Source: Haliotis rubra
Lineage: Eukaryota
NCBI RefSeq assembly: GCF_003918875.1
Contig: NW_025766503.1
Location: forward strand, 496,001-560,000
DNA length: 64,000 bases
Direction of reading: 5' to 3'
The notes under the pieces were generated by a model. That model saw only the letters and a list, made by a program, of their open reading frames with translations. It searched no databases and had not been told where the DNA came from. Below, piece after piece: positions 16,185 through 52,842 of the stretch; the stretch's first letter is position 1, and the number at the start of each line of letters is the position of its first letter. The translations under genes were made by a program, and so were the position numbers.

Positions 16185-18556
16185 CGCACCTCACCGTTAG
16201 AGGACACAGTCAATAGACACACACACACACACTCCTCACCGTCAGAGGACACACCTCTCTCACCGTCAGAGGACACCACAACTCTCTCACCGTCAGAGGA
16301 CACGCACATCCCTCACCGTCAGAGGACACGCACATCCCTCACCGTCAGAGGACACGCACATCCCTCACCGTCAGAGGACACACATCCCTCACCGTCAGAG
16401 GACACGCACATCCCTCACAGTCAAAGGACACGCACATCTCTCACCGGCAGAGGACACACATCCCTCACCGTCAGAGGACACGCACATCTCTCACCGTCAG
16501 AGGAGACACATCCCTCACCGTCAGAGGAGACACATCCCTCACCGTCAGAGGACACACACATCTCTCACCATAGAGGACACACATCTCTCACCGTCAGAGG
16601 ACACATATCTCTCTCACCGTGAGAGGACACACACATAAGACAGCCATCGACTTCAGAGAACACACACATCCCTCCTCGTCAGAAAACACACATATCCCTC
16701 GTCGTCACACACATCCCTCGTCGTCAAAGTACTCACACATCCCTCGTCATCAGAGAACACACACACACCCCGTCGTCAAAGGACTCACACATCCCTCGTT
16801 GCCAGAGAACACACACATCCCTCATCGTCAGAGAACACACACATCCCTCGTCAGCAGAGAACACACACACGCACACCGTCGTCAAAGGATTCACACATCC
16901 CTCGTCTTCAGAGAACACACACATCCCTTGTCGTCAGAGAACAAACACATCCCTCATTATCACACACACATCCCTCGTCGTCACACTCATCCCTCGTCAT
17001 CAAAGGACTCAAACATCCCTCGTTGCCAGAGAACACACACATCCCTCATCGTCAGAGAACACACACATCCCTAGTCAGCAGAGAACACACACACACACCG
17101 TCGTCAAAGGATTCACACATCCCTCGTCTTCAGAAAACACACACATCCCTTGTCGTCAGAGTACAAACACATCCCTCATTGTCATACACATCCCCCGTCG
17201 TCAGAGAACACACACATCCCTTGTTGTCAGAGAGCACACTCATCCCTCGTCGTTACACACGTACCTTATCGTCAGAGAACACACACATCCATCGTCGTCA
17301 AAGGACTCACACATCCCTCCACGTCAGAGGACACATACATTTCTCACCGCCAAAGAACACACATCCATCGTAGTCAGAGGACACACACAGCCCTTGTCCT
17401 CAGAGAACACACTGATCCCTCGTCGTCAGAAACCACACATCCCTCGTCGTCAGAGAAACACACACATCCCTCGTCGTCACACACATCCCTCGTCATCAAA
17501 GGACTCACACATCCCTAGTGGCCAGAGAACACACACACCCCTCGTTGCCAGAGAACACACACATCCCTCGTCCTCAGAGAACACACACACCGTCGTCAAA
17601 GGACTCACACATCCCTCATCTTCAGAGAACACACACATCCCTAGTCGTCAGAGAACAAACACATCTCTCGTTGTCACACACATCACCCGTCGTCAGAGAA
17701 ACACACACATCAATCGTCATCAAAGAACACACACATCACTCGTCGTCAGAGAACAACACGCATCCCTCGTCACACACATCACTCGTCGTCAGAGAACACA
17801 CACATCCCTCACCGTCAGAGAATAAACACATCCCTTGTCGTCACACACATCCCTCGTCGTTAGAGGACACACACATCCCTTGTCGTCAGAGAACACACAT
17901 ATCCCTCATCGTCAAAGAACACACATCCCTCGTCATCAGAGAAGCACACACACATCCCTCACAGTCAAAGAACACATACATCTCACACCATCAGAGGACA
18001 CACAGCCCTCACCGTCAGAAGACACACCTCTCTCACCGTCAGAGGACACACACATCTCTCACCGTCAGAGAACACACATCCTTCGTCATCAAAGGACTCA
18101 CACATCCCTCGTGGCCAGAGAACACACACATCCCTTGTCGTCAGAGAACACACACATCCCTCGTCGTCAGAGAACACACATCACTCGTCTTCAGAGAACT
18201 CACACATCCCTCGTCATCAGAGAACACACACATCCCTCATCGTCAAAGGACTCACACATCCCTCTTCGCCACACATATCCCTCGTCATCAGAGAACACAC
18301 ACATCCCTCGTCGTCAGAGACACACGCAGCCCGTGTCGTCAAAGGACACACATATGAGAGGACACACATATACATCTCTCACCATCAGAGGGCACACACA
18401 TATATCTCCCACCGTCAGAGGGCACACACATACATCTCTCACCGTGAGCGGACACACATATACATCTCTCACCCTCAGAGGGCACACATATACATCTCTC
18501 ACCGTCAGAGAACACACACATACATCTTTCACCGTCAGATGGCACACACATACACC
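16185..18556. repeat. Complex CA-rich satellite (24-30 bp units, TCACCGTCAGAGGACACACAC / TCGTCGTCAGAGAACACAC)
   Basis: Direct inspection; it produces the His/Thr/Ser-rich spurious ORFs. Confidence 0.95.
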
Positions 18557-18608
18557 TGTTTTTTTGGGGGGCGGGGGGGTGTTGTTAAATAAATTTGGGT
18601 CGGCCATT

Positions 18609-18734
18609 TTGTTTTTATGACGTCTCATAGGTGTGATCTTTGTGTGACCTAATCGACTGTTGAACCCTTAAGCCCCACCCTCCTTCGGGAGTCCCCTTCC
18701 GGCACAGGTGTTTGTATGACCTTCAGGTTGACCT
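18609..18734 (+). repeat. Left inverted repeat of element B
   Basis: CTTTGTGTGACCTAATCGACTGTTGAACCCTTAAGCCCCACCCTCC...CCGGCACAGGTGT...CCTTCAGGTTGACCT is the reverse complement, with mismatches, of 28517-28629. Confidence 0.9.
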
Positions 18735-18906: not shown

Positions 18907-19095
18907 ATGGAAGCCGTTCACCGTGATATTCTGAGGAAGAATCGCTCTGGCCTAGTGCAAGCTATACAGCCTGTAGAAGAGGTGGTCGACAAACTGGTAC
19001 AGTTTGAAGTCCTTACCATCTTCATGAGGCAGAGATTATCGAAAAAACACAAACATCCTTTGACGGGGTCAGAGCCTTATTAGATATAATCCGGC
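18907..19095 (+). pseudogene. CARD domain, N-terminal two-thirds (5' part of CARD-PC4 gene)
   Basis: MEAVHRDILRKNRSGLVQAIQPVEEVVDKLVQFEVLTIFMRQ, a 1-nt frameshift near 19030, then EIIEKTQTSFDGVRALLDII. Confidence 0.8.
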
Positions 19096-19100
19096 AGCAG

Positions 19101-22100
19101 GTAGACATAACCTTGTTTTGATGTCTATAGTAGGTTTTTGTGTGGATTATGTTTGTTAAGACCACCGATATCAAGGGTAAGTTTACTGGACATCTGTCAG
19201 ATAAGTTATAAAAAACAAAATGGCCACCATTAGTTAAAGTGATTGCAATAAAATATTCTTTAAAAAGTGAACTATGAGAGTTGATTCGCACAAAATGGCA
19301 ATGTTATTATTGTGATGATGCTCTTTGTTCATTGTAACATGCAGTTGATGTCTGGTAAGCACAGAACATTGTGCATGGTAGTTTCGCACGGTTACATCCA
19401 CATGTTGAAGACTTGGGGTTTCACTTGAGCAGGAACACCTGATCATCTGTAAGATCTTACTTGGAGCTAGGGGACTGTCTGCAGGTACTGTTGTTGGTCG
19501 TAATGACTTCATACTCTGTTCTTTCATCCATCCATAGTCTGTGGCTTCCAACTTCTGAGGATCAAGTTGCAGTGCATTCTTCCAAAGAAAGGTTTGCAAA
19601 TGAGCTCTCTTGACATTTTCAGTGAATGCTTCTGTAGTTGGTAGCAGTAAGGCAAGCTTGGGAACATGTGTTATTCCAGGCTTCCCAATTTGAGCAGTCC
19701 ATACACTAACTCTTGCTTCTGTCATGGATGTAGCCATTGGCTGTCCATAACATTCAGCTGTGAATCTGGTCGCTTGCGCAATCACATCAGACCAATCTGA
19801 CCAATGTTGCCGATCTTGTCCACAGACACATTCTTTCCCAGCACTTTCAGCATTTTTCCTTTCCCTACTCCATAGCATGCTGCCACAGTGTCACAGCCAG
19901 ACAGAGCATGACCAGCCAATAATGATGGAATTATATCACGATGCTTCCCAACAGCAGCTTGTATATCAATTACCTTTCTCTCTTTAATAGGTGATGCCAT
20001 CACCATTGGTAATTGTAAGCCTTGTTGATGAGTAATGATGAACACAAGATGTTTTTTCATTCTCTCTCAGGATTGATAAATCTTCGGCCACATACATGCA
20101 GACTAAGTGCCCATGTCTTCAGAGTTTCGGGTTTCAGTGTAATGCCAATGATGCCAGATTTACCATGCCCATACCGCAAAAAAGTCGTCTCAATAAACAT
20201 GTCACTCCACAGACCATTCCATAATCCTGGTACATGCCGCATTACATGAGCACCCTTCATGAAGTGTTCTGGTATGTTAGCTGGCAACTCCTCCATGCTC
20301 CTCAGATAATACAGGCCATATCTAGCATAGTTGACGTGCCTAGATGCAAAGAAGTATGGCATCATCAGTTTCACTGCCTGCAGGTGTAGAGGCCAATCAC
20401 CTTCTCGCTCTGCTCGTACGTACAACATCATTATAAGGACTGGTTTTATGAACACATCAACCCACAGTTTTGAAGTGCGACTTTTGGATGCCAGGTCTTC
20501 AGGTACATTCATAAAATCATGATGGCCCTTCAGCTGAGTTTTACCAATAACATCTCTAAGCAGCTCCTCGGCAACCATGTGCATTTTTTCAACAACCTCC
20601 AGAGACAGACTTCAAAATTTCTTACAGGCCAGTCTCAGTCATCAATGTTCCAATAGCACCCACAAAACTCATCAGCATATGCATTCCACCCAATCTTGAG
20701 ATCAGATTTGGAAACAGATCTGGATGAGCCCACTGAATATCCACTGCAAGTTGTAGATTAGTGGTGAACACAGTGAAATTTTGTCCAATTGTTTCTGTTA
20801 ACTGCTGTGCTTTGCTCATTGCAGTCATGATGGTATCAGGATGAGCTGGTGGCATATCAATCAATTGTGGATTGTGGAGACATAAAATTCACACGACAGT
20901 TTTTGTGATAGCATGCATCAGCAGCATGTAAATCACTAACAGCTCCACACACCATGACTCTAACTTGAGATGCCCATTCATCACTCCGTTCGTCACACTT
21001 CTCAAGGATTTCTTGCTTCAATGACTGTTTATGTCTCATTCTTACAAATTGTGTGCAAATATAACCTGGCCTCCATCTTGAAGGATTTTTTGGATCCTTT
21101 TTAACTTGACATTCTTCCCGAAAATAACTACAGTGATGCTTAAAGTTAAATTTTGGGAGCTCAGACCATTTTGCTGTTTTTGGAGCAGGCACACCCACAT
21201 CTGCATCACCAACATGACGTTTCACAGCCTTTCGGACTTCCTTAGGATGAAGGTACTTTTCTACGCATACCTTGTGGGCTTGAAGGATGATACTTGAATC
21301 AATCTCAAACTGGGGCTGCAGTTTCACATGGTACAGCTGACTACATCTAATAATGTTCTGAATTCGCTTGGCCTTAATGTTAATGAGTCCCTTACTTCGT
21401 AGGGAATCATTGTATTTAAATTTCCAATTAAAATAGCACTCCCTCTCCATGGCACTTTATCTAAAACAAGAGATTTACAATAAGTTGCCATGTGAAGTGC
21501 CAATGCGACTGTTGCGTACTGATAAAAGGCCAATGCTCAGAGAAACAAGTGATCTCAAACCATTTGCCATATATAACTATAACGTAATGTGTTTTAAATA
21601 GAACAGGATGTCATTCTGTTTGTAGCAAGGTTAATATATTGACAGCAGTTAGCTGTACACACACATTCAGAATGTCTACATCCACGTTCACTTACAGCTA
21701 TTAACTTAATTAAGCTACCCATTCCTCTTTGAAATTAAAATATAACCACGCACATATAATTCAACTTACTTGGCTAAGCCTTGAAAAAAGACTGACCAAC
21801 ATGGTTGTATAATATTAATATTAGTATTCGACAAGCATGCATTCACCATCTAATGTATTACAGATAGAGCAAAAATTAACTTCCCAATGAAGTGGTTGTG
21901 GCCAGCTTTAAGTGATGACATCATCAGGAAGTACAGAAATGTGTGGTTGTTGTTGAGGAAATTTTGTTTAGTTTAAGTGACATTGTAATTTTTTACAGCT
22001 AGACACCAAAAATAGATACGTTGCTTATATACATAATTATGTTTAATTATATTCGCTACTACTCATAATGCTCAATGCTGATGGGGTCCAGTAAGACATT

Positions 22101-22186
22101 TTTCTAAATAGATGGTCTTGAGATGCAAAATTCACAAAAAAACTTACTACAGACACCAAAGCAAGGTTGTGCCCCAAAAGTGGAGC
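19101..22186 (-). mobile_element. Academ-type DNA transposon (internally deleted) inserted in the CARD gene; ends approximate
   Basis: Imperfect ~90 bp inverted repeats (from ~19106 and ending ~22171). Minus-strand ORF fragments carry RLGGMHMLMSFVGAIG, RAEREGDWPLHL...NYARY, HALSGCDT...GVGK (XPG-like) and a C-terminal Cys cluster. Confidence 0.75.
19300..21450 (-). pseudogene. Academ-type transposase/XPG/Cys-cluster polyprotein, fragmented
   Basis: ORFs 20857-21450, 20622-20864, 20057-20584, 19782-20060 and 19234-19878 are colinear pieces of one protein. Confidence 0.75.
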
Positions 22187-22807
22187 AGGCGAGGACCCCA
22201 AGCTTACACCCTCTTCTGTAAAGCTTTGGAGGAATGTGGAGAGATACAAGCTATGCCATTGCTGGGACTAGAGACAGACAAGACAGAGCTACAGGATCCT
22301 CGTTGTCATATAGACTTAGGCAATGACGTATTTGTGACGGCCAAGATGTGGAATGGAGAACTAGGAATTCGTGTAAGGAAGTACGATGTATATCCTAGTG
22401 AGAGAAGTTATCCTACCAAACGTGGTATTGTCCTGAGTTTGAAACATTGGCTGGAACTTCGTGGAGTCCATTTCAAGCTTCAGGAGGCCATCGATCAAGG
22501 AAGGACCCATGATTATGCTCATGTGGGTGCCAATATGTTTGCTACTTTGGATCCAAATGGTGGTGTGGATCTACGACAGTGGGAGAAAAATGAACAACTG
22601 GGAAGAGTGGTACCTACAGCTAAGGGTATCTTGTTGTCTAAACAACAATGGCAGAAACTAAGAGACTGTTGTGAAGTGATGACAGATTTCGTACCCGAAC
22701 TCAAAGACATGGTTCCCTGTATGGGACAAGAGGATCATCGAAACCAGATGGGAGCTTTAATGTGTTCCTTCTGTAATCCCAATGACTATGAATGTTGGAG
22801 TAACTGA
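22187..22807 (+). CDS. 3' part of CARD-PC4 gene: last CARD helices, two PC4-like ssDNA-binding domains, Cys/His motif
   Basis: RRGPQAYTLFCKALEECGEIQAMPLL (CARD end); IRVRKY...PTKRGIVLSLKHWLEL and VDLRQW...PTAKGILLSKQQWQKL (PC4 x2); C...DHRNQMGALMCSFCNP. Confidence 0.85.
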   Translation, partial: RRGPQAYTLFCKALEECGEIQAMPLLGLETDKTELQDPRCHIDLGNDVFVTAKMWNGELGIRVRKYDVYPSERSYPTKRGIVLSLKHWLELRGVHFKLQEAIDQGRTHDYAHVGANMFATLDPNGGVDLRQWEKNEQLGRVVPTAKGILLSKQQWQKLRDCCEVMTDFVPELKDMVPCMGQEDHRNQMGALMCSFCNPNDYECWSN

Positions 22808-23275
22808 CTATTTTTCTATGGATGGAAGTCTCCCTTCAGTAATTTTCATCCATGCACATTAGACATAGATAATCGTATGTTCAATTGTACTGAACAATAT
22901 TACATGTATTCTAAGGCAATTTACTTTGGTGATCATACACTTGCAAGTCGTATTTTACTAGAGACTATTCCGGCTAAGCAAAAACGTCTTGGGAGATGTG
23001 TGAAAGGCTTTACTCAGAAAGTGTGGGACACTGTCAGTCTTGATGTTATGACTAAGGCATTAATGGCTAAATTTTCCCAGAACAAAAATGACTTGAAACA
23101 GATATTGATTCAATCCTATCCTAAACAGTTAGCTGAAGCTAGACCCTTAAATAAAAGATGGGGAATAGGAATTGATGTTTCTCATCCTGATATTGACAAA
23201 CCCTGGAAATGGCCGGGGGAAAACCTGTTGGGAAAAACATTAATGTATGTCCGTGAAAGGTTGTTGTTGTTGTAA
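22808..23275 (+). CDS. NADAR (YbiA/DUF1768) family protein
   Basis: FFYGWKSPFSNFHPC...TEQYYMYSKA...QKRLGR...KFSQN...LAEARP.NKRWGIG...WPGENLLGKTLMYVRERL. The conserved N-terminus lies upstream of the ORF-track Met at 22877. Confidence 0.9.
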   Translation, partial: LFFYGWKSPFSNFHPCTLDIDNRMFNCTEQYYMYSKAIYFGDHTLASRILLETIPAKQKRLGRCVKGFTQKVWDTVSLDVMTKALMAKFSQNKNDLKQILIQSYPKQLAEARPLNKRWGIGIDVSHPDIDKPWKWPGENLLGKTLMYVRERLLLL

Positions 23276-23378: not shown

Positions 23379-24262
23379 ATGGCACCTTGGGAAGAAAACC
23401 TGAATAGGATCTATTACGATCCAAAACACGCTGGTAGTTATGCTGGACCAAAGAAGTTGTACGAAGCTGTGAACGCTGAGGGTCAGTTTAAAATTGGTCT
23501 ACATCATATCAAGAAATGGCTCAAAGGTCAGGAGAACTATACTATGACTCATCTAGTCAGAAGAAAGTTTCCAAGAAATGAGTATGTGGTCGAAGGTTTA
23601 GACAGTCACTGGCAATCGGATCTGATGGATATGGTATCACTTGCAAAGTACAACAATGGCGTTAAATACCTCCTGGTCATCATATATCTGTTTTCACGAT
23701 ATCTATGGGTGTATCCCACATATGGGTGTATTTACCTACAGATATGAGGATATCTTACCAGATGTAGTCAAGAGTTCCAACCACACGAAACATAGAATGT
23801 TAGGACAGTCTCCTGCTAGTGTGACTGAGAAAAATGAAGATGAAGTGAGACTCTCACGGTATTTGATTAAACCCTCAAATGTTAAACACAATAAAAAGAA
23901 GTTCACTTTCAAAGTGGGGGATAAGGTCAGAGTGAGTCATCTGAAGAGAACTTTTTGACAGAGAATACCAGGAGAAATGGTCTGATGAAATATTTACAGT
24001 AATAAGAAGATATTGGTCTCAAGGCAACGACTTGTACAAGCTTAAAGATTGGGGTGGTGATCCTATCGAAGGTGTCTTTTATTCATCAGAGCTTCAAGCA
24101 GTGGTAGAAAATCCAGATCAGGAGTATAGAATTCAAGACATTGTCAAAAAGAGGACCAGAAATAAACGATAAGAAGTGTTAGTGAAATGGTTCCATTGGT
24201 CTAAAAAATACAATTCATGGATCCCAGAAGGTGATGTGAAACAGTATAAAAGCACAACGTAA
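23379..24262 (+). pseudogene. Polinton retroviral-like integrase with C-terminal chromodomain; catalytic core deleted
   Basis: YYDPKHAGSYAG, WQSDLMDM...YLLVII, FKVGDKVRVS, EKWSDEIFTV, IEGVFYSSELQ, VLVKW...NSWIP; frameshifts and a stop. Confidence 0.92.
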
Positions 24263-24281: not shown

Positions 24282-24536
24282 ATGATGGAACACACTGAAG
24301 GAGCAGCATCTCTCATACGGAGTACATCATCTGACACCTGGACATTTTGGGGGAAAAAAGTGGCAAAAACAGAAACAGGGTTTCTCTCTCAGATAATCAT
24401 TATTTACATTTTAGTCATTACGTGTATTGTCAATTTGTCCTTGGACAAATGAAACTCCAATTTGTGGACAGCACTACTCAGTAGTAGTTTGGGATACTTG
24501 TTACCTAACCCCAAGATTAAATCTAAACATGGATAA
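24282..24536 (+). pseudogene. Small two-TM Maverick membrane protein (one internal stop)
   Basis: WTFWG...FLSQIIIIYILVITCIVNLSL...LWTALLSSSLGYLLPNPKIK. Confidence 0.65.
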
Positions 24537-25056
24537 AGACATTACGATCAGAAGTACAGATAGTGAACACCTCTATACCAACAACAAATCTTTTAACTTC
24601 AGAGTGGGTTTGAATGAACCATTACATCTTGATCAAAGGTGGAGGATAGGACTAACAGAAATATCTATATTGTCCTGGGACATAGATAAAAAAAATTCGG
24701 AAAGTCGTGACATATATGTCTATTCCTCATTGTGCGATTCATCATATGTTGGAGAAACAAAACAACCTTTACTCAGACATTTATGTCTCACGGGAAACCG
24801 AAAAGAATGTTCTTTTTCATTTTCTCAGTGTCAGTATGTCAGAGATTTTCAGACTGTGGATATCTATTCTAAAGACCATGAGGGCGATCCAGCTTCATTT
24901 ATTTGTGGACCAGTGACAATGACACTTCATCTCAAGCCGCTCACGTTTTCATCATTCATAATCATGAATACAAACTCTTCGTACCCGATGCCGATAAATG
25001 GACACGGTTTTACATGTTCCAGGCTGAAGGGAAAGGAGATCCTTATCATGCTATAA
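24529..25056 (+). CDS. Short minor capsid (penton-like) protein
   Basis: STDSEHLYTNNKSFNFRVGLNEPLHLDQRWRIGLTEI...IYVYSSLCDSSYVGETKQPLLR...VTMTLHLKP. Confidence 0.75.
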   Translation: MDKDITIRSTDSEHLYTNNKSFNFRVGLNEPLHLDQRWRIGLTEISILSWDIDKKNSESRDIYVYSSLCDSSYVGETKQPLLRHLCLTGNRKECSFSFSQCQYVRDFQTVDIYSKDHEGDPASFICGPVTMTLHLKPLTFSSFIIMNTNSSYPMPINGHGFTCSRLKGKEILIML

Positions 25057-25298
25057 TGCGTTTGGATGAGAAAAATCTGTCATTATGTCTGTCAATCGAT
25101 ATTTGGAACTGTATGACCCAGAGTGGAAGAAACAAAAAGAACCAGAAACCTCAGCGCAACCTAAGATTAATTTTGTTACCCTTACTCAACAAGAGGTCGA
25201 ATAGGCCCAGGCTCTTATTCAAATGCAGAAGAAAGGGGAATCTAAAGCTGGAAGTTCCTCCCAGATTCCCATGAAGAAACGGAAGATGACTTTTTAGA
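24964..25298 (+). pseudogene. Small basic Maverick hypothetical protein, frameshifted
   Basis: KLFVPDADKWTRFY...INFVTLTQQEVE.AQALIQ...KKRK. Confidence 0.45.
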
Positions 25299-25346: not shown

Positions 25347-26980
25347 ATGCAGTCAACAACGTGTCCCATGTGCTATCAGACTTTTTCCAGAAGGGATGCC
25401 ATGCTTAGACATCTCAGGAATCAACACAGACGAGCAACACAGCCAACAACACAAGCACCACCACCACAAGCACCAGAACCACCACAAGTACCATCACCAC
25501 CACCACCACCACCACCACCACCAGCACCACCACAACCACAAGCACCACCAGCACCACCACAACCACAAGCACCACCACCACCACCACCACAAGCACCACC
25601 ACCACCACAAGTACCATCACCTATGATGCAACCAGTGCAACCACATTCATCAGAAAGTACTACCCAGTCATTGGAAGAATTTAGGCTGCGACTTCCATTC
25701 ACCATGATCGTCTCAGGGCCCACCTCCTGTGGGAAAACCTACTTAGTGAAGCAGGTTCTAGAAAGGATGAAAATTAAACCTTATCCTGAACGTATTATAT
25801 GGCTCTACAAACGATGGCAGCCACTGTATAACATCATTCAAGCCTGTGTTTATCCTTACGTTGAATTTCATCAAGGCATTCCTTCTCACCTCAAAAAGGA
25901 TGCGTTTCTGGACCCCAGTGTTGTGAACGTGGTTATCCTCGACGACTTAATGTCTACTGCAGCAAAGATCCATGCATTACAGATCTGTTTACAGAAGGAA
26001 GTCATCATCGTAATCTCTCAGTGATAGCCTTGAACCAGAATTTGTATTTCAGTAAGGATCCCACACACCGAAGAAACTGTCATTATCTGCTTCTGTTCAA
26101 CAACCCTATCGATCAACAACCCTTTGACTTTGGTGAGGCAAATGTATCCAGGTAACACAGACCATTTCATGGAGCCATTTCAAAGGGCTACCCAGAAACC
26201 TTATGGATACTTGTTGGTTGATGTAAAACCCCAAACACCTCCCCATTTGCGACTTTGTCCTAATGTGTTCAGTTTAAAAGGAGGCCTCAAAGCTAGGACA
26301 ATTCAGTCCGAGTTAGACGTTCAGAGTGAACAGACGTGTGAAGAAAACCTCCCAACAATGCCATCTTGTGATGACTGTGGACTCGTGTTTCAGACGAAGT
26401 GCATGATTTGCAAAAACATAGAAGAAACTGGTGTCCTGAAAAGTCTTCAGTGGGTCCACCTGGAATACCCCCAAGTTAAAAGGAAGTGGGAGGAAGACGA
26501 CAACTTCTCTGCTGTGAAGAGACCACGTCCTCTGTCAGATTGTGACTATTGTGGTCAAGTGTTTAGCAATAACCACAACTTACAAAGACATTTACATGAT
26601 AAACAATGTCCTGAAATGGAAAATGATGATGATTATGATGCTGTATCGTTAAGCGATGTCACACAAAACAACAGGAAAAATAAGATGGCTGATCTCGAAG
26701 AGCAAGGTATAAGACAAATGTATTCACGTACACGTGAGCTGAATAAAAAACCTTTTGGATGAAAAACGACAGCTGTACAGGTTTACACGAAGACATGATT
26801 CAAGCCAAACTGAAAAAATTCATCTGGAGCACATTTAAAGAGACGTATTACTTATCTGTATCATATGCAGTGGGGTCCAAAGACACAAGGAATACTGAAA
26901 GGTGTAGGAGGCAGAAATAATCTGAATCATGACGTGTTTTCCAAACTGTACCAATATAAATCTTGTTTCTTAATGTAATG
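25347..26980 (+). pseudogene. A32/FtsK-like packaging ATPase with N-terminal C2H2 finger and Pro-rich linker, followed by further zinc-finger-like sequence; frameshifted
   Basis: CPMCYQTFSRRDAMLRHLRNQH; Walker A GPTSCGKT; Walker B VVILDDLM; FTEGSHHRNLSVI; PYGYLLVD; CDYCGQVFSNNHNLQRH. Confidence 0.88.
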
Positions 26981-28516: not shown

Positions 28517-28629
28517 AGGTGAACCTGAAGGTAACACACACCTGTGCCGGAAAGGAACTCCCAAAGGAGGGTGGGACTTAAGGGTTCAACAGTCGATCAG
28601 GTCACACAAAGGTGACGCCATAAGAACAA
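28517..28629 (-). repeat. Right inverted repeat of element B
   Basis: Reverse complement of 18609-18734. Confidence 0.9.
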
Positions 28630-28786
28630 NNNNNNNNNNNNNNNNNNNNNNNNNNNNNNNNNNNNNNNNNNNNNNNNNNNNNNNNNNNNNNNNNNNNNNN
28701 NNNNNNNNNNNNNNNNNNNNNNNNNNNNNNNNNNNNNNNNNNNNNNNNNNNNNNNNNNNNNNNNNNNNNNNNNNNNNNNNNNNNNN
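28630..28786. other. Assembly gap
   Basis: Run of N. Confidence 1.
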
Positions 28787-29165
28787 TCAGAGGACACACG
28801 CATACATCTTTCATCGTCAGAAAACACACACATACGTCTCTCACCGTGAGGGGACACACACATACATCTTCCACCGTCAGAGGACACACACATACATATT
28901 TCATCGTCAGAAAACACACACATACGTCTCTCACCGTCAGAGGACACACACATACATCTCTCACCGTCAGAGGGCACACACATACATCTTTCATCATCAG
29001 AGGGCACACACATACATCTCTCACCGTCAGAGGACACACACATACATATTTCACCGTCAGAGGGCACACACATACATCTCTCACCGTCAGAGGGCACACA
29101 CACATCTGTCACCGTCAGAGGACACACACATCCCTCGTCGTCACAGAACAGACACAAAATCACAC
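28787..29165. repeat. 30 bp satellite, continuation of the 16.2-18.6 kb array
   Basis: TCACCGTCAGAGGGCACACACATACATCTC units match those at 18355-18555, same orientation. Confidence 0.95.
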
Positions 29166-30022
29166 ACACATGTCCATATGTGTCCTCTCACACGTACTTT
29201 CATGATGTCAAGAAATATCGTTGGCGTTATTGAAAGAGGCCAGGCGTTAAGTTATCCATACATTTAAGTCTTTATACATATCCGTATATGAATCCACCCG
29301 ATGTGGAGATGCAGCATGTACCATCCCAGCATCACACCTCTCAGTGAAAGGTGTTACTACAGCGCACATACTGACCCTGATACCGATCAATACCATGTGG
29401 ATACGGCAGCTCCCGATACACACTCATATCCATAGTCACACACAAAGGCGAGGGTAAGTAAATACAGTACCTTTTCATTACCTATGTCGGTCTTCTTTCT
29501 AAATCGGAAGTCCATACAAAAATAATGTAACCTTGTATATATTCCCTTTATACAATGAATAGTTTTTTACTATTTTTCATCTTCGCTCATCTTCAGCTGT
29601 TGACCCATAAAAACCGTTTTCGACTCTGCCTCAAAATTTGAAAATTACCCTGGGATAAAACGTCAATCTGAAATTAGTAATGCCGTCCTATGGGATAAAG
29701 ACGTCAGTGGATAAAGAGAGTTTTATCATAAATATTCCAACCTAATGTATTTTGAACTAAGGGCTAAATGAAACCTTAAAAACATATTTCCTTAATGTAT
29801 ATGAATAGTTATTTTCGTTCAGCTTAGTGACCAAATTCTATTAGACCCCAGGTAAAACAAACAAGGCACAAAATGCACCTCGATGCCATTGTTACAGTTG
29901 CCTGTAGGCTATAATGTCAATAGATCCCACTGGCCACTTTGAAGATATTTACCTTCAGATTACCTTCACATAATCCTATGTTGTTATGCTGTTTTGTTGT
30001 CCTTGCTAGCTGATGTGTTCCC

Positions 30023-30197
30023 TAAAGCGTAGCACCGCACACTAAAGCGTAGCTACCCCACCGCACACTAAAGCGTAGCTACCCCACCGCACACTAAAGC
30101 GTAGCTACCCCATCGCACACTAAAGCGTAGCTACCCCACCGCACACTAAAGCGTAGCTACCCCACCGCACACTAAAGCTTAGCCACCCCACCGCACA
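30023..30197. repeat. ~26 bp minisatellite
   Basis: Tandem CTAAAGCGTAGCTACCCCACCGCACA. Confidence 0.95.
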
Positions 30198-30263
30198 TTG
30201 GCACTTACACGACGTGGTCGGGTGGAATTGTCCATTCTTTGGCGACATTCTTTAGGCGCCATT

Positions 30264-31066
30264 TCCAGTGTGTTGCTCAGCACTGTAGGGCGTGGCAGGC
30301 GACATCTCCAGTGTGTTGCTCAGCAGTGTAGGGCGTGGCAGGCGACATCTCCAGTGTGTTGCTCAGCAGTGTAGGGCGTGGCAGGCGACATCTCCAGTGT
30401 GTTGCTCAGCAGTGTAGGGCGTGGCAGGCGACATCTCCAGTGTGTTGCTCAGCAGTGTAGGGCGTGGCAGGCGACATCTCCAGTGTGTTGCTCAGCAGTG
30501 TAGGGCGTGGCAGGCGACATCTCCAGTGTGTTGCTCAGCAGTGTAGGGCGTGGCAGGCGACATCTCCAGTGTGCTGCTCAGCAGTGTAGGGCGTGGCAGG
30601 CGACATCTCCAGTGTGTTGCTCAGCAGTGTAGGGCGTGGCAGGCGACATCTCCAGTGTGTTGCTCAGCAGTGTAGGGCGTGGCAGGCGACATCTCCAGTG
30701 TGTTGCTCAGCAGTGTAGGGCGTGGCAGGCGACATCTCCAGTGTGCTGCTCAGCAGTGTAGGGCGTGGCAGGCGACATCTCCAGTGTGTTGCTCAGCAGT
30801 GTAGGGCGTGGCAGGCGACATCTCCAGTGTGTTGCTCAGCAATGTGGGGCGTGGCAGGCGACATCTCCAGTGTGTTGCTCAGCAGTGTAGGGCGTGGCAG
30901 GCGACATCTCCAGTGTGTTGCTCAGCAGTGTAGGGCGTGGCAGGCGACATCTCCAGTGTGTTGCTCAGCAGTGTAGGGCGTGGCAGGCGACATCTCCAGT
31001 GTGCTGCTCAGCAGTGTAGGGCGTGGCAGGCGACATCTCCAGTGTGTTGCTCAGCAGTGTAGGGCG
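30264..31066. repeat. 43 bp GC-rich minisatellite (~19 copies)
   Basis: Tandem TCCAGTGTGTTGCTCAGCAGTGTAGGGCGTGGCAGGCGACATC. Confidence 0.97.
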
Positions 31067-31227
31067 TTAAGTACGTTAACGTTCCAGCACACGGGTACAC
31101 ACGCCCTGGTGTCCACTGATAGGGTCGATGTATGCTACACGAGGCGTTTAACCTATCTGTCTCCTCTGTTAATAGTTTAATGTTATTGTTGATCATCAGC
31201 TACATCATAGCCTTGTCGTCAGTACGG

Positions 31228-31404
31228 TAACTCTAACCCAAACCCAAAACCTTACCCTAACCTAACCCTAACCCTAACCCTAACCCTAACCCTAAACCTT
31301 ACCCTAACCCAAAACCTTACCCTAACCTTAACTCTAACCCTAACCCAAAACCTTACCCTAACCCAAAACCTTACCCTAACCCCCTAACCCTAACCCTAAC
31401 CCTA
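31228..31404. repeat. Interstitial telomeric-like (CCCTAA)n tract
   Basis: Perfect and degenerate CCCTAA/CCTTAC/CCCAAAA units. Confidence 0.9.
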
Positions 31405-49144: not shown

Positions 49145-52100
49145 AGAAGAAGAAGAAGAAGAGCTTTATTCAGTATTTAAGGCCACATGACCAAAAGTAC
49201 AATTCAATATGCAAAATATAGAACATGGTCAGGAGAACAATTTACAATTTATACAGGTAAATATAGTTTAAGATAAATTGCAATATTTTTTAGGAGTTTT
49301 ACATTCTTTGTTGCAAGCAGCTGGGTAAACTTTGATCTGGTTGGAGATATAATATAAAAATCAGGAATATACAAAGAGCGTTGTTGTGAATAAAATGGAC
49401 ATACGAGTAAGAAATGATACTCATCTTGTATCAAATTACAATTACATTTATCACATTTAATGGAATCAGCATTTACCTTATTAAAACGGTTGTGTTGATT
49501 TTTAAGTTTATGACTCATGCATCTGAATTTAAATAAAACTCGTAAGAGATCTTTATCATAGCAAAACTCTGATATATATTTTTCCGGTTCAAGTACAGAT
49601 TTATATGACGAGTAATGATTTAAGAATGATGAAGAAGTGATTTTTGCATACCAATTCTGTATATCTATATCTTTACATCTCTGTTTAAAAACACTTATAA
49701 AACTTGTTACATCGCCACAATCTTGCGATAACCACACAAAAGAAAACCCAGAGTGAAATAAAAGTAAACGTACATGGGATACCCAATTGCGACCACCATT
49801 GTCGTCGTATGTTTTTAACATCTCATAGCATGCCTTTGGAATACGATAACTTTCCATATTCAGGAGTCTACACCAGTACTTTATACAACGGGTGAAATAC
49901 TGTACACAAAGATGGCTTCTACCTGTTTCACCAAGTACAATATTTGAAGATACAGTTTTGCTAACACGAAGATATCTTTTGAAATAATAAGTTTGTAATT
50001 TTTCAATGTTTGCACGATAGGTAAACCCCCATATTTCTGCACCATAAAGCAGAATCGGTGCAATTTTGCTGTCAAATATAGTAGATGCCACATTCAAAGA
50101 GATATTTTGATAAGTTCTGAAAAGAGAAAATATCGGAAATGAAGCCTTCCTAGCTTGTAAAGCTAATGTTTCACATGCTTTAGACCAGTACAATTTTGAT
50201 GTGAAAACAATACCAAGATATTTATAATGAGATAAAACCTTCATGTTTGTACCATCATAAAGCCATTTTTCGTTATTTCGAAGATAGCCACCATTCCTGA
50301 AAACAATAATGCAGGATTTATCTAAGTTAACTTCTAGACCCCATTTGATACAAAATGATTTTAATGTATCCAGCTTTTTTTGTAAACCTATTACTGTGTC
50401 ATCAATGAGAGTGACGTCATCTGCGAATAACCATAAAAGTATATCATTCATACCATTTTTCACAAATATTCCACGTAGGCCACGTGCATTCATTTCATCT
50501 ACTAATTCGTTGATAAAGAAAATGAACAGAACAGGACTGAGAATACATCCTTGTCGTAGTCCAGATGTTGTCGAGAATACTTCTGTTCGTACACTAGATA
50601 TTTTCACACAAGCAGATACCTTATCATACATATTTTTGAGGATTCGTATTATTTTCCCATGCATACCTTTGGAGATAAGAGCATATAAAAGCTTGTTTCT
50701 GTCTATATAATCAAATGCCTTCCGAAAGTCAATAAAAGCTGCGTAAAACCGATGTTTACGTTTTCTTAAATACTTTTGGCATAGAGCTTGCAGAACGAAC
50801 ATATTATCAGCTGATGAGTAACCGGGCCTAAACCCTGCTTGACATTCATGTAGTATATCGTTTAAATCTAACCAGATACGGATTCTGACTTCGAGGATAG
50901 AAGTGAATATTTTCCCCATTACATTCAACAAAGAGATTCCACGATAGTTATTTGGTTCGTGAGTGCTTCCTTTTTTATAGAGTGGAATGATCAAGCCAAC
51001 ATTCCAGATATCAGGGAAAATGCCGCTGTCCAGTATAGCATTAAACAATATTTCTAGGTAGGGAAGTATGCATTGAGAATGTTTGAAGAATTTGGGTGGT
51101 GTTCCATCAATACCTGGGGATTTACCAGATTTTAACACTTTGATTGCATTTTCTATTTCTGTTCTGGTAATTGGTGCAGATAAAAAGTCAGTATTGTTAC
51201 AGTCCGCACAGTAATCATGCTGTGTCAAAAATGCGTCAACATTCTCATTGAACTCCATATTTGTTTCCCGACACGTCGGGTTTAACAAATTCTTAAAATA
51301 TGTCACCCACTTATCTGCCGTAATTGTGTTATTTTCATTACAATTGCTCAGTAGAGATTTTATCTTATGCCAGAACTTCTTACAGTCACCACTTTTAGCT
51401 GCACTCTGAATCTCATCAGCAATACCACCGTTAAACATTCTACTTTTATTTCTGCACAAGAGGCGAAAGTGTCTCTTTGCTTCAATGTATCTGTTTAGAT
51501 TTTCATTTGATCTGCATTTGCGGAACATATTAAGCCAGTAGAACTTATATCTTTTTGAACTTTCGCATTCTTCATCAAACCAATTAGGTTGAATATTCTT
51601 TGATTTAGGGATCTGAACATCACGACATTGAAAGTGACTTCCCACGAAGTGGAGAAACTCAACAAGTTTCTCGGTGGCACCATTGATATCAGAATAGACT
51701 AGATCAAGAAACTCATCTAATATACAACTCGCTGTACTAGACGCTACAGACTCATTGAACTTGTCTAAACCACCATTATTCCACCTGAACTTTGCGAGTT
51801 TTTCACACTCTACATGACGAACACTGGTTAATAGCGAGTTATCACCACAATCCTCGACGGATACCTCTACAATGCACGATAGAGGCAGGTGGTCAGAGTC
51901 TGACCGCGAGTGGACAAACATATCCCTAATCAAGTAAAAACAGCTGGTCGACGCCAATATAAAATCAACAAGGCTTGAGCCATTGTGTGTGATACATGTA
52001 ATAGACCCAGTTTCATCGCCTTGTGTCCTACCATTAACTATATGTATACCCCATACCTTGCACACTTCTAGCAGAGCCAGGCCATACATATTCACTGTAG

Positions 52101-52842
52101 TGTCTTGTGTTACTCTAGTTTCACTGAAACTGTCGGGAAGATACAAATCTGATAATGGTAAGAAGTTCAAATCACTATCATCTTCCAACAAATAATCATC
52201 GTTTGAGCCCACCCTCGAATTGAAATCACCTAGCAGTATTATAGGAATAGCATCACCGTAATCTGCTCTAATAGTAGCTATTTTAGAATCAAGCTCATCA
52301 ATGCCATTAGAATCTGGGTCAACATAAAGTGGGGATCCTTCTGGTAGTATGTAAAGGAATCCAGCAATGAAATTTCTCTTAAAGTGAAAAAAGACGCTAT
52401 TCTCCCAGTTGGGATATATTCTTTGGAAAACCTTCTCAAACGATTTTCGGATATAAACAGCCACGCCCCCAGAATAACGACCATATTTCCGTAACCGTTT
52501 TGCCGGTGATGCATGACATATAAATTTGTAAATAGACCATAAAGCGTAGTGGAATCGCTTTGCATCGTTTCTAAAAGACCAAAAATGTCAAACTGTGCAC
52601 AGAAATCCATAAATGAATTATCTTTTAGGTGCGAGTGCAGGCCATGAATGTTCCACGCACACATGTTCAAGTTCTTGAAGACATCAGTCCCCGAGTCTTG
52701 AGGAGTAGATCTTGTGTCCAGATCAGGGTGTAGGTCACGGCCGAGTTCCTAGGCTGAAACAGACGCCCCCTGGGTGTCCCTGACGCCGCTCCCCCGGGAC
52801 CCAGGAGGCGTCCCTCCATGGGCCCCGTGAGGACTGCGCAGC
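49145..52842 (-). mobile_element. 5'-truncated LINE (APE-RT; RTE-X-like, clade uncertain) with 15 bp TSD
   Basis: GAAGCAGCGAGTAGA at 49130-49144 and 52843-52857; AATAAA and (TTC)n 3' tail. Confidence 0.92.
49249..52670 (-). CDS. LINE ORF2: AP endonuclease + reverse transcriptase + C-terminal Cys/His knuckle; one frameshift near 52500
   Basis: WNIHGL, LGDFNSR, SDHLPL, YRGISLL, FIDFRKAFD, GLRQGCILSP, LFADD, YKYLG, DEYHFLLVCPFY. Confidence 0.95.

Follow-up and report, generated by a model that had tools for sequence, protein, structure and literature searches.

The 64,000-nucleotide stretch of the Haliotis rubra genome analysed here (assembly GCF_003918875.1, contig NW_025766503.1, positions 496,001 to 560,000 of the forward strand; this whole stretch is hereafter the window) contains a broken copy of a conserved accessory gene of Maverick (Polinton) elements, which encodes a CARD, two PC4-type repeats and a cysteine- and histidine-bearing tail with a predicted zinc site (CARD-PC4-PC4-Zn). 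The family to which it belongs is marked by this architecture, by its Maverick context, by purifying selection on every module, by a shared CARD clade and by a NADAR domain that follows in frame behind a TGA-C stop. We propose that the product is a binder of single-stranded DNA (ssDNA) with a decoy CARD, to which low-rate readthrough of the TGA would add NADAR; judged from sequence, this composite reading has an even chance of being right.

In the window, the 5' CARD piece (18907..19086, + strand; helices 1-4) begins with an ATG at 18907, and the 45 codons ahead of a frameshift match Pfam CARD at E=4e-4, under the curated cut-off. Comparison with sister genes by tblastn locates the change of reading frame at about 19020-19047, in agreement with the break near 19030 proposed by the first-pass annotation, an earlier reading of the bare sequence. 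The DNA match to sister genes stops at 19086 and is back at 22186-22188, with about 10 bases unaccounted for. The 3' CARD piece with its linker (22187..22291, +; helices 5-6, with an RRGP motif) is 85% identical to sister CARD residues 64-90; behind it lie the two PC4-type repeats (22292..22700, +; predicted to form a single-chain pseudo-dimer) and the tail (22718..22774, +; a zinc site predicted from motif conservation among relatives), and the translation of 22190-22804 yields two Pfam PC4 stretches (E=1e-14), ending in C-x5-H-x8-C-x2-C. Pfam and tblastn place the CARD, PC4, PC4 and C/H/CxxC pieces where the first-pass annotation had put them; what it overlooked is the NADAR (YbiA-type) frame (22808..23275, +; Pfam NADAR E=2e-41) directly behind the stop codon (22805-22807), which stands in a TGA CTA readthrough-type context (22805..22810, +) in frame with NADAR.

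Searched with the window's 3' piece, the genome yielded 152 matches (from 448 candidates, of which 150 were scored), and an uninterrupted open reading frame (ORF) of 268-270 amino acids was present in nine of the 19 sister loci fetched. All five of the intact ORFs scanned contain a CARD (51-58 bits against a cut-off of 23.9, E 1e-13 to 1e-15) and two PC4 domains; because sister loci carry the uninterrupted ORF, the fusion that had been proposed after removal of an insert and repair of the frame is real without any sequence repair. The halves of the window's gene were scanned separately, the intact natural copies being used in place of in-silico joining.

Several of these uninterrupted copies sit, as had been anticipated, beside Maverick integrases and a protein-primed polymerase, in full Mavericks of about 15.8 kb, and CARD-PC4 is indeed the first gene inside the left terminal repeat of the full sister Mavericks. 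Three sister elements measure 15.7-15.9 kb between their inverted repeats; two of the three full sisters tested start with TGTTGT, end with ACAACA and have 6-bp target-site duplications. The polymerase was found in all three sisters scanned (Pfam DNA_pol_B_2, E 1e-21 to 1e-29), an integrase with rve and chromo domains in both of two, and an adenovirus-type protease (Peptidase_C5, E=3e-5) in sister C702; no protease ORF was seen in sister C2644, and the sister ATPase has weak P-loop Pfam matches only. Capsid genes of the sisters are named by position only: the capsid-like genes fit in size and place and are 38% identical between abalone-type and oyster-type elements, with no Pfam or PDB match. 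The genes are laid out in two converging modules, as in vertebrate Mavericks, which have terminal inverted repeats, 6-bp target-site duplications, lengths of about 15-20 kb and two converging gene modules (PMC8097293, in excerpt). Named homologues come from Haliotis, and databases list the proteins as uncharacterised host genes.

The PC4 pair, the CARD and their changing partners

A PC4-domain profile collected 1,885 clusters at E<=0.001, of which 748 passed 1e-10. Among 136 near-full relatives, 118 have the C-x5-H-x8-C-x2-C tail, and in an alignment of 100 sequences the four residues of this predicted zinc site reach a conservation of 90% or more. With that alignment, AlphaFold2 folded the 170-residue PC4-PC4-tail domain of a sister as one unit (predicted local distance difference test, pLDDT, 96.9; predicted template-modelling score 0.89), resolving a tail that had fallen below pLDDT 50 in an earlier 17-sequence model. 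The model of the pair matches Pur-alpha (Z 12.6, root-mean-square deviation, rmsd, 3.6, 124 residues aligned) and PC4 (Z 6.9, rmsd 1.4), so that the double repeat recognized by the first-pass annotation is supported as a single-chain pseudo-dimer. The pair also matches human PC4 in sequence (E=5e-7), with basic and aromatic positions partly kept; a point on the other side is that the aromatic residue equivalent to human W89 is not kept in repeat 1 in the alignment. The ratio of non-synonymous to synonymous substitution rates (dN/dS) among three subfamilies is 0.05-0.34 for the PC4 repeats and 0.09-0.15 for the tail. On the strength of the model, the PC4 pair very probably binds ssDNA. From the fold and the established replication of Polintons, it would coat the single strands displaced in protein-primed replication, the gene product being an abundant ssDNA-binding protein for strand-displacement synthesis.

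The best viral structural match of PC4-PC4-tail is a lancelet adintovirus protein labelled MOSUB (A0A5H3CIS2; E=2.5e-7, TM score 0.63), and with this match the PC4 part has a precedent among these elements; to judge from such comparisons, PC4-PC4-tail is a known but undescribed Polinton accessory gene. Scans of viral contigs confirmed no relative of the PC4 domain, and the NADAR matches in them were distant only. In several loci (L038, L092-L094, L096, P0009) the CARD is missing from PC4 genes that still begin with the first 7-10 CARD-gene codons; these genes are a class of in-frame internal deletions, which has spread with non-autonomous elements.

The CARD is RAIDD-like: the best PDB match of its profile is RAIDD (E=1e-8), and the model of an intact sister is helical, with TM scores of 0.83-0.87 to the CARDs of caspase-9 and Apaf-1, which bears out the caspase-9/RAIDD-type pattern first noticed in the sequence. 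The linker to PC4 has low pLDDT in the same model. The CARD evolves at a dN/dS of 0.11-0.20 among three subfamilies and of 0.11-0.24 in 15/15 pairs across fusion types. Names of CARD-PC4 clusters include Mytilus, Crassostrea/Magallana and Pinctada, and an automatic CARD/PC4 cluster of the ESM Atlas (61 members, mostly molluscs, score 0.87) serves as a lead only. Two oyster-type loci have CARD-PC4 in the same place, followed by integrase, capsid-like genes, protease and ATPase. In a tree of 37 rows, 13 abalone-type, mussel, oyster and pearl-oyster CARDs (that of L083 partly out of frame) fall on one side of a branch with support 95/88, and 19 host CARDs with five other viral CARDs fall on the other; the host set is limited to the best 19 non-Maverick matches listed, which tempers the separation. 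A PC4 tree made by a quick method, with fragments among its unlabelled rows, requires five or more changes of the CARD label. Because of this Maverick clade and these label changes, the CARD is, so far as the trees can tell, an old element-borne family that has been repeatedly lost or moved. About 130 of the 150 best-scoring CARDs in this genome are Maverick genes, and counts of 'expanded' mollusc CARD, IAP (inhibitor of apoptosis) and PC4 families may accordingly include viral genes.

The same CARD also occurs outside the PC4 fusion. A genome query with the CARD only found many places not on the PC4 list, and the 20 fetched comprised 18 CARD-NADAR and two CARD-BIR fusions; both kinds pass Pfam. 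Of 117 stretches examined, 95 carried a module (a hand-chosen sample, whose counts are not genome frequencies); with CARD first, the orders were CARD-PC4-NADAR (27), CARD-NADAR (19), CARD-PC4-BIR (13) and CARD-BIR (9), and with PC4 first PC4-BIR (9), PC4-NADAR (6) and PC4-CARD-BIR (4), with a few others. Since the CARD rides on three unrelated partners or stands as a gene of its own, it is unlikely, on this distribution, to belong to the structure of the ssDNA binder.

An abundant second Maverick family (L041-L058, L103; e.g. L041:2001-2783) carries CARD-NADAR, of about 260 amino acids, directly downstream of the polymerase; its junction motif has about 100 matches genome-wide (123 versus 19 in the control). 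CARD-BIR fusions of 207-210 amino acids (L059, L060, L072-L075, L077, L078, P0182; L059 has two identical copies in inverse orientation) have a counterpart at 61% identity in an ENA protein, and a CARD-BIR domain order was not found among the host mollusc IAPs covered by the consulted part of PMC8917759. In a divergent family (L080, L086, L087, L090, L155) the order is PC4, CARD, BIR, the CARD lying downstream of a CARD-less PC4 gene; this may be the older of the arrangements. A CARD-PC4/BIR unit is repeated in tandem five times or more, at a spacing of about 2.5 kb, in G000:C86:268017-278754, and further NADAR families (e.g. C2671, C1935, C142, C753) have identities of 44-50% and open frames of 170-330 amino acids.

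The first-pass annotation offered two roles for the CARD, a decoy against host CARD/caspase signalling or a polymerizing part of the binder, and held that sisters lacking the CARD, or encoding it separately, would refute its proposal. Such sisters exist in part, either as families without a CARD on PC4 or with the CARD as a separate downstream gene; they indicate a movable module, which favours the decoy and argues against the polymerizing role, while the fusion itself stands. It is quite improbable that the CARD makes the PC4 pair polymerize into a filament that binds ssDNA and is required for replication: the fusion is under purifying selection, occurs in gastropod and bivalve records and has a linker modelled as flexible, but the CARD was found in only seven of the 65 long PC4 relatives scanned (of 150 listed), the other 58 having no Pfam CARD at E<=0.001, its label changes at least five times on the PC4 tree, and the same CARD is found on NADAR, on BIR or in a separate downstream gene.

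The main rival to the decoy is a homotypic address tag, by which the CARD would gather the element's own accessory proteins (ssDNA binder, NADAR, BIR) into a single complex or filament at replication sites without targeting host CARDs. One CARD family sits on three unrelated partners and is nearer to other mollusc Maverick CARDs than to the 19 host CARDs, as if binding its own kind, and CARDs form filaments, according to PDB titles; yet most elements examined have a single CARD gene, so that there is often no second viral CARD to bind (L155 is an exception), and CARD-less PC4 genes are common. We regard this tag as doubtful. By analogy with viral CARD proteins we lean, by a small margin over even chances, towards a decoy against host CARD/caspase death signalling. 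The CARD would soak up host CARD signalling, as the iridovirus CARD does, beside a BIR gene or NADAR, and would act largely independently of its partner, sitting N-terminally on whichever accessory gene follows. In one virus, a protein consisting of a CARD only inhibits apoptosis and reduces caspase-8/-9 activity (PMC4457926, in excerpt), and the neighbouring BIR genes fit an anti-death cassette. Modelling the viral CARD in complex with the closest RAIDD-like CARD of the host gave no answer (score 0.01).

The TGA stop codon and the NADAR frame behind it

Programmed readthrough of the TGA into NADAR is likely, and is indicated by the in-frame TGA-C, by tryptophan at the corresponding site of natural fusions, by the lack of an early methionine and by a post-stop dN/dS of 0.14-0.22. 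In a census of 97 stretches picked by protein similarity, all 21 NADAR-followed PC4 tails have NADAR in frame, the stop being TGA-C in 19, TGA-T in one and TAA in one, against TGA-C in one of 24 other PC4 tails, a copy that is itself NADAR-followed with an indel; the copies are not independent (about four NADAR-type and four other subfamilies, with duplicated assembly places), which weakens the case. Pattern-picked loci were left out of the census; among 20 of them, seven without any module are chance matches. In the CARD-NADAR fusions, the codon aligned to the stop is TGG (Trp) in 19 of 19.

In most subfamilies NADAR has no methionine before its catalytic glutamate, which is at codon 29 past the stop, the first methionine being at codon 33 and usually lying behind the first strand. 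In an alignment to 8bau, the codon-29 glutamate corresponds to E43 of P. nicotianae NADAR, and equivalents of K50 and E125 are kept; E43, K50 and E125 are the catalytic residues of that enzyme (PMC11543638, in excerpt). Among three subfamilies, dN/dS is 0.14-0.22 over codons 1-32 and 0.21-0.35 over the rest of NADAR; codons 1-11, with rows against the fused NADAR discarded because they were two codons out of register, show 3-5 synonymous differences on about six sites versus 1-3 non-synonymous on about 27, and immediately after the shared TGA the synonymous codons used differ from one subfamily to the next. This ratio and the mostly synonymous variation argue that the post-stop codons are translated. 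As to mechanism, UGA CUA is a listed readthrough context of Sindbis virus, o'nyong-nyong virus and PSIV, UGA readthrough mostly inserts Arg, Cys or Trp (both from passages of PMC13517186), and readthrough is promoted by a C after UGA (PMC12233894, in excerpt).

Several further points weigh against readthrough. The full CTA follows the stop in 14 of 28 PC4-linked sites, the others being CTC (12), TTA (one) and, behind TAA, ATA (one). The first 90 nucleotides past the stop contain no conserved stem-loop (z between -3.0 and +0.4). Only in this genome was the TGA/NADAR arrangement observed, and two oyster-type elements run from CARD-PC4 into integrase with no NADAR. The divergent copies L079 and L083 have an in-frame methionine at codon 6, and three single copies have one ahead of the glutamate. 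Apart from these points, a search for a stop-free, longer PC4-NADAR protein in other species returned one NADAR-only match among 50 candidates, which is weak evidence. No RNA data set is listed as containing an intact sister. Contigs from three presumed RNA runs came to 6-11 short, low-depth pieces each and were not used as evidence, nor was one 392-nucleotide contig that touches the CARD end and NADAR, as the CARD-NADAR family would.

Splicing, adenosine-to-inosine editing of the stop or re-initiation could also reach NADAR, though together they are unlikely. A branch-point-like CTGAC overlaps the stop and AG dinucleotides occur at codons 7 and 11, as splicing would use; however, the stop and the first NADAR strand have no AG between them, L014 lacks the AG of codon 7, codons 1-11 vary mostly at synonymous sites, introns from a nearby GT to either AG (29 or 40 nucleotides) would shift the frame, and the genes of intact vertebrate Mavericks are intronless (PMC8097293, in excerpt). 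Editing would yield the Trp codon found in the CARD-NADAR fusions, and the codon-6 methionine of L079 and L083 would suit re-initiation. Selenocysteine at the TGA was rejected, as the aligned residue is Trp and not Cys; no search for a selenocysteine insertion sequence was made. The most remote reading, already largely refuted, is that the post-stop NADAR is a silent relic of an old fusion and that the CARD hitch-hikes behind a strong promoter: TGG stands at the site in one heavily error-ridden copy (L101, dropped from the analysis as too error-ridden) and many copies are decayed, but dN/dS between stop-bearing subfamilies is far below 1 on both modules, catalytic residues are kept, and the same TGA is followed by subfamily-specific synonymous codons.

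If readthrough occurs, leaky termination would give a majority of CARD-PC4-Zn and a minority of CARD-PC4-Zn-NADAR, and the extension would park a predicted ADP-ribose eraser on ssDNA, where NADAR, by prediction, would remove ADP-ribose from guanines in the DNA of the element; DarT1-type enzymes modify the substrate on which NADAR would sit (PMC11543638, in excerpt). The element would then blunt the death response of the host cell and at the same time keep its replicating DNA clean. More speculatively, and with a low probability in our estimate, the shuffled counter-defence cassette (CARD, ssDNA binder, NADAR, BIR), arranged around the mollusc Mavericks' own CARD family and with programmed UGA readthrough fixing how much eraser accompanies the ssDNA binder, may point to an undescribed mollusc antiviral pathway of ADP-ribosylation and CARD-mediated death, which would ADP-ribosylate guanines of viral ssDNA and signal death via CARDs, an animal counterpart of bacterial DarTG1 defence.

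The element in the window and its surroundings

The gene in the window is split by a decayed DNA transposon of about 3.1 kb (19087..22184, - strand) with TAG...CTA family termini and terminal inverted repeats at 19106-19164 and 22113-22171 (80% identity). The first-pass annotation had placed this insert at about 19101-22186; the transposon is present, with its start at about 19087, 14 bases to the left, where other copies have their TAG, and its right end, cut off, at about 22184, the last 17 or so bases up to the CTA end of other copies being gone. Because the insert starts there and not at 19101, the two 'II' residues read at the junction as CARD derive from the transposon end. The genome contains 5-6 further copies at 83-91% identity. 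The insertion site in the window has lost about three CARD codons and lacks a target-site duplication; a 3-bp duplication is visible at one sister place. One transposon ORF has a weak match to Pfam DUF6589 only (E=4e-4), and the transposase matches no named model; TAG...CTA ends and target-site duplications of 3-4 bp are features of Academ transposons, to which the insert is putatively related.

The left end of the Maverick-derived element (18580..18734, +) comprises an inferred terminus, TGTTGT at 18580, and an inverted arm at 18630-18734, which is 88% identical to the right inverted arm (28517..28619, -); the element ends in or near an N stretch at 28630-28786. Behind NADAR follow an integrase, broken and partly deleted (23379..24247, +; three tblastn pieces at 84-88%, intact sisters having Pfam rve and Chromo); minor-capsid-like and PW-like genes named by position only (24529..25274, +; 55% identity to the sister gene in the minor-capsid position, no Pfam match); and a frameshifted frame of C2H2 finger, Pro/Gln tract, packaging-type ATPase and further C2H2 finger (25348..26762, +; zf-C2H2, Adeno_IVa2 E=4e-4), whose ATPase matches the sister ATPase by tblastn at E=3e-13. 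Polymerase, major capsid and protease have no tblastn match anywhere in the window, and the copy is for this reason a non-autonomous derivative: a dead, deleted, mosaic Maverick remnant.

The single-ORF order C2H2, Pro/Gln, IVa2-like ATPase, C2H2 is shared by the window (25348-26762), L038, L072 and L093; this ORF of non-autonomous derivatives is 510-537 amino acids long where intact and differs from the full-element ATPase. Minisatellites of 26 and 30 bp at 16223-18554 and 28787-29131 flank the element in direct orientation; on account of that orientation they were rejected as terminal inverted repeats and read as host flank, and the element appears to sit inside host satellite. Elsewhere, 30007-31400 contains tandem arrays of 26-bp and 43-bp units, after which comes an interstitial telomere-like (TAACCC)n tract, and 49249-52587 (-) contains an intact long interspersed element ORF of 1112 amino acids with endonuclease and reverse transcriptase.

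Comparison with known systems

Maverick accessory genes show which host defences these DNA viruses of animals have met, but the function of very few is understood. In the present case a single cassette ties a proposed death-fold decoy, an IAP-like BIR and a predicted DNA de-ADP-ribosylase to a predicted replication ssDNA binder in gastropod and bivalve records, and the likely readthrough, if true, would have few parallels among eukaryotic DNA virus-like elements. No description of CARD fusions or readthrough was found in the Polinton, Maverick and adintovirus literature searched, most subscription journals and Repbase lying outside the search; the parts consulted of PMC8502044, PMC11131425, PMC8097293, bioRxiv 2023.08.22.554363 and PMC9223095 do not mention them. 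The fusion, of which the first-pass annotation knew no description, has none in this literature as regards the CARD, its PC4 part being already known as MOSUB. New here are the Maverick CARD clade apart from host CARDs, the CARD-NADAR and CARD-BIR fusions, and the NADAR in frame past the PC4 stop.

MOSUB, a label on the map in Supplementary Fig. S2 of PMC8502044, whose main text yielded no mention of MoSub, PC4, NADAR or a CARD domain in the part consulted, shares the PC4-PC4-tail fold and the accessory position beside the terminal repeat in the Branchiostoma lancelet adintovirus. It has 203 amino acids and its match is confined to the PC4 part, whereas here a CARD stands in front and NADAR in frame behind. 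PC4/Sub1, Pur-alpha and the phage T5 PC4 homologue have the same ssDNA-binding fold, with two repeats per chain as in Pur-alpha; unlike PC4/Sub1 and Pur-alpha, the gene here adds the C/H/CxxC tail and the CARD, and identity to Pur-alpha is only 12%.

Iridovirus CARD-only proteins (GIV-CARD, which inhibits apoptosis according to an excerpt of PMC4457926, and vCARD) are likewise virus-borne, and a cod iridovirus CARD matches the model at E=9e-4; they are CARD-only proteins of about 90 amino acids, whereas the Maverick CARD is RAIDD-like and fused to PC4, NADAR or BIR. With cIAP1/2, which have BIR and CARD, the CARD-BIR protein shares both domains in one chain, in reversed order, with one BIR and no RING; of the mollusc host IAPs in the consulted part of PMC8917759, none had a CARD.

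The Pfam NADAR domain and the equivalents of catalytic E43/K50/E125 are common, by alignment, to the Maverick domain and the NADAR/YbiA guanine de-ADP-ribosylases. Phage orphan antitoxin-like NADARs directed against DarTG1 provide the counter-defence precedent (PMC11825919, in excerpt); unlike those, NADAR here belongs to an animal virus-like element, in which it either is joined to a CARD or follows a leaky-type stop. Finally, type II (UGA-CUA/CGG) readthrough of alphaviruses shares the UGA CUA context and an in-frame downstream enzyme, and differs in that here the genome is a DNA element, no conserved 3' stem-loop was found in the first 90 nucleotides, and the product would be an accessory enzyme rather than a polymerase.

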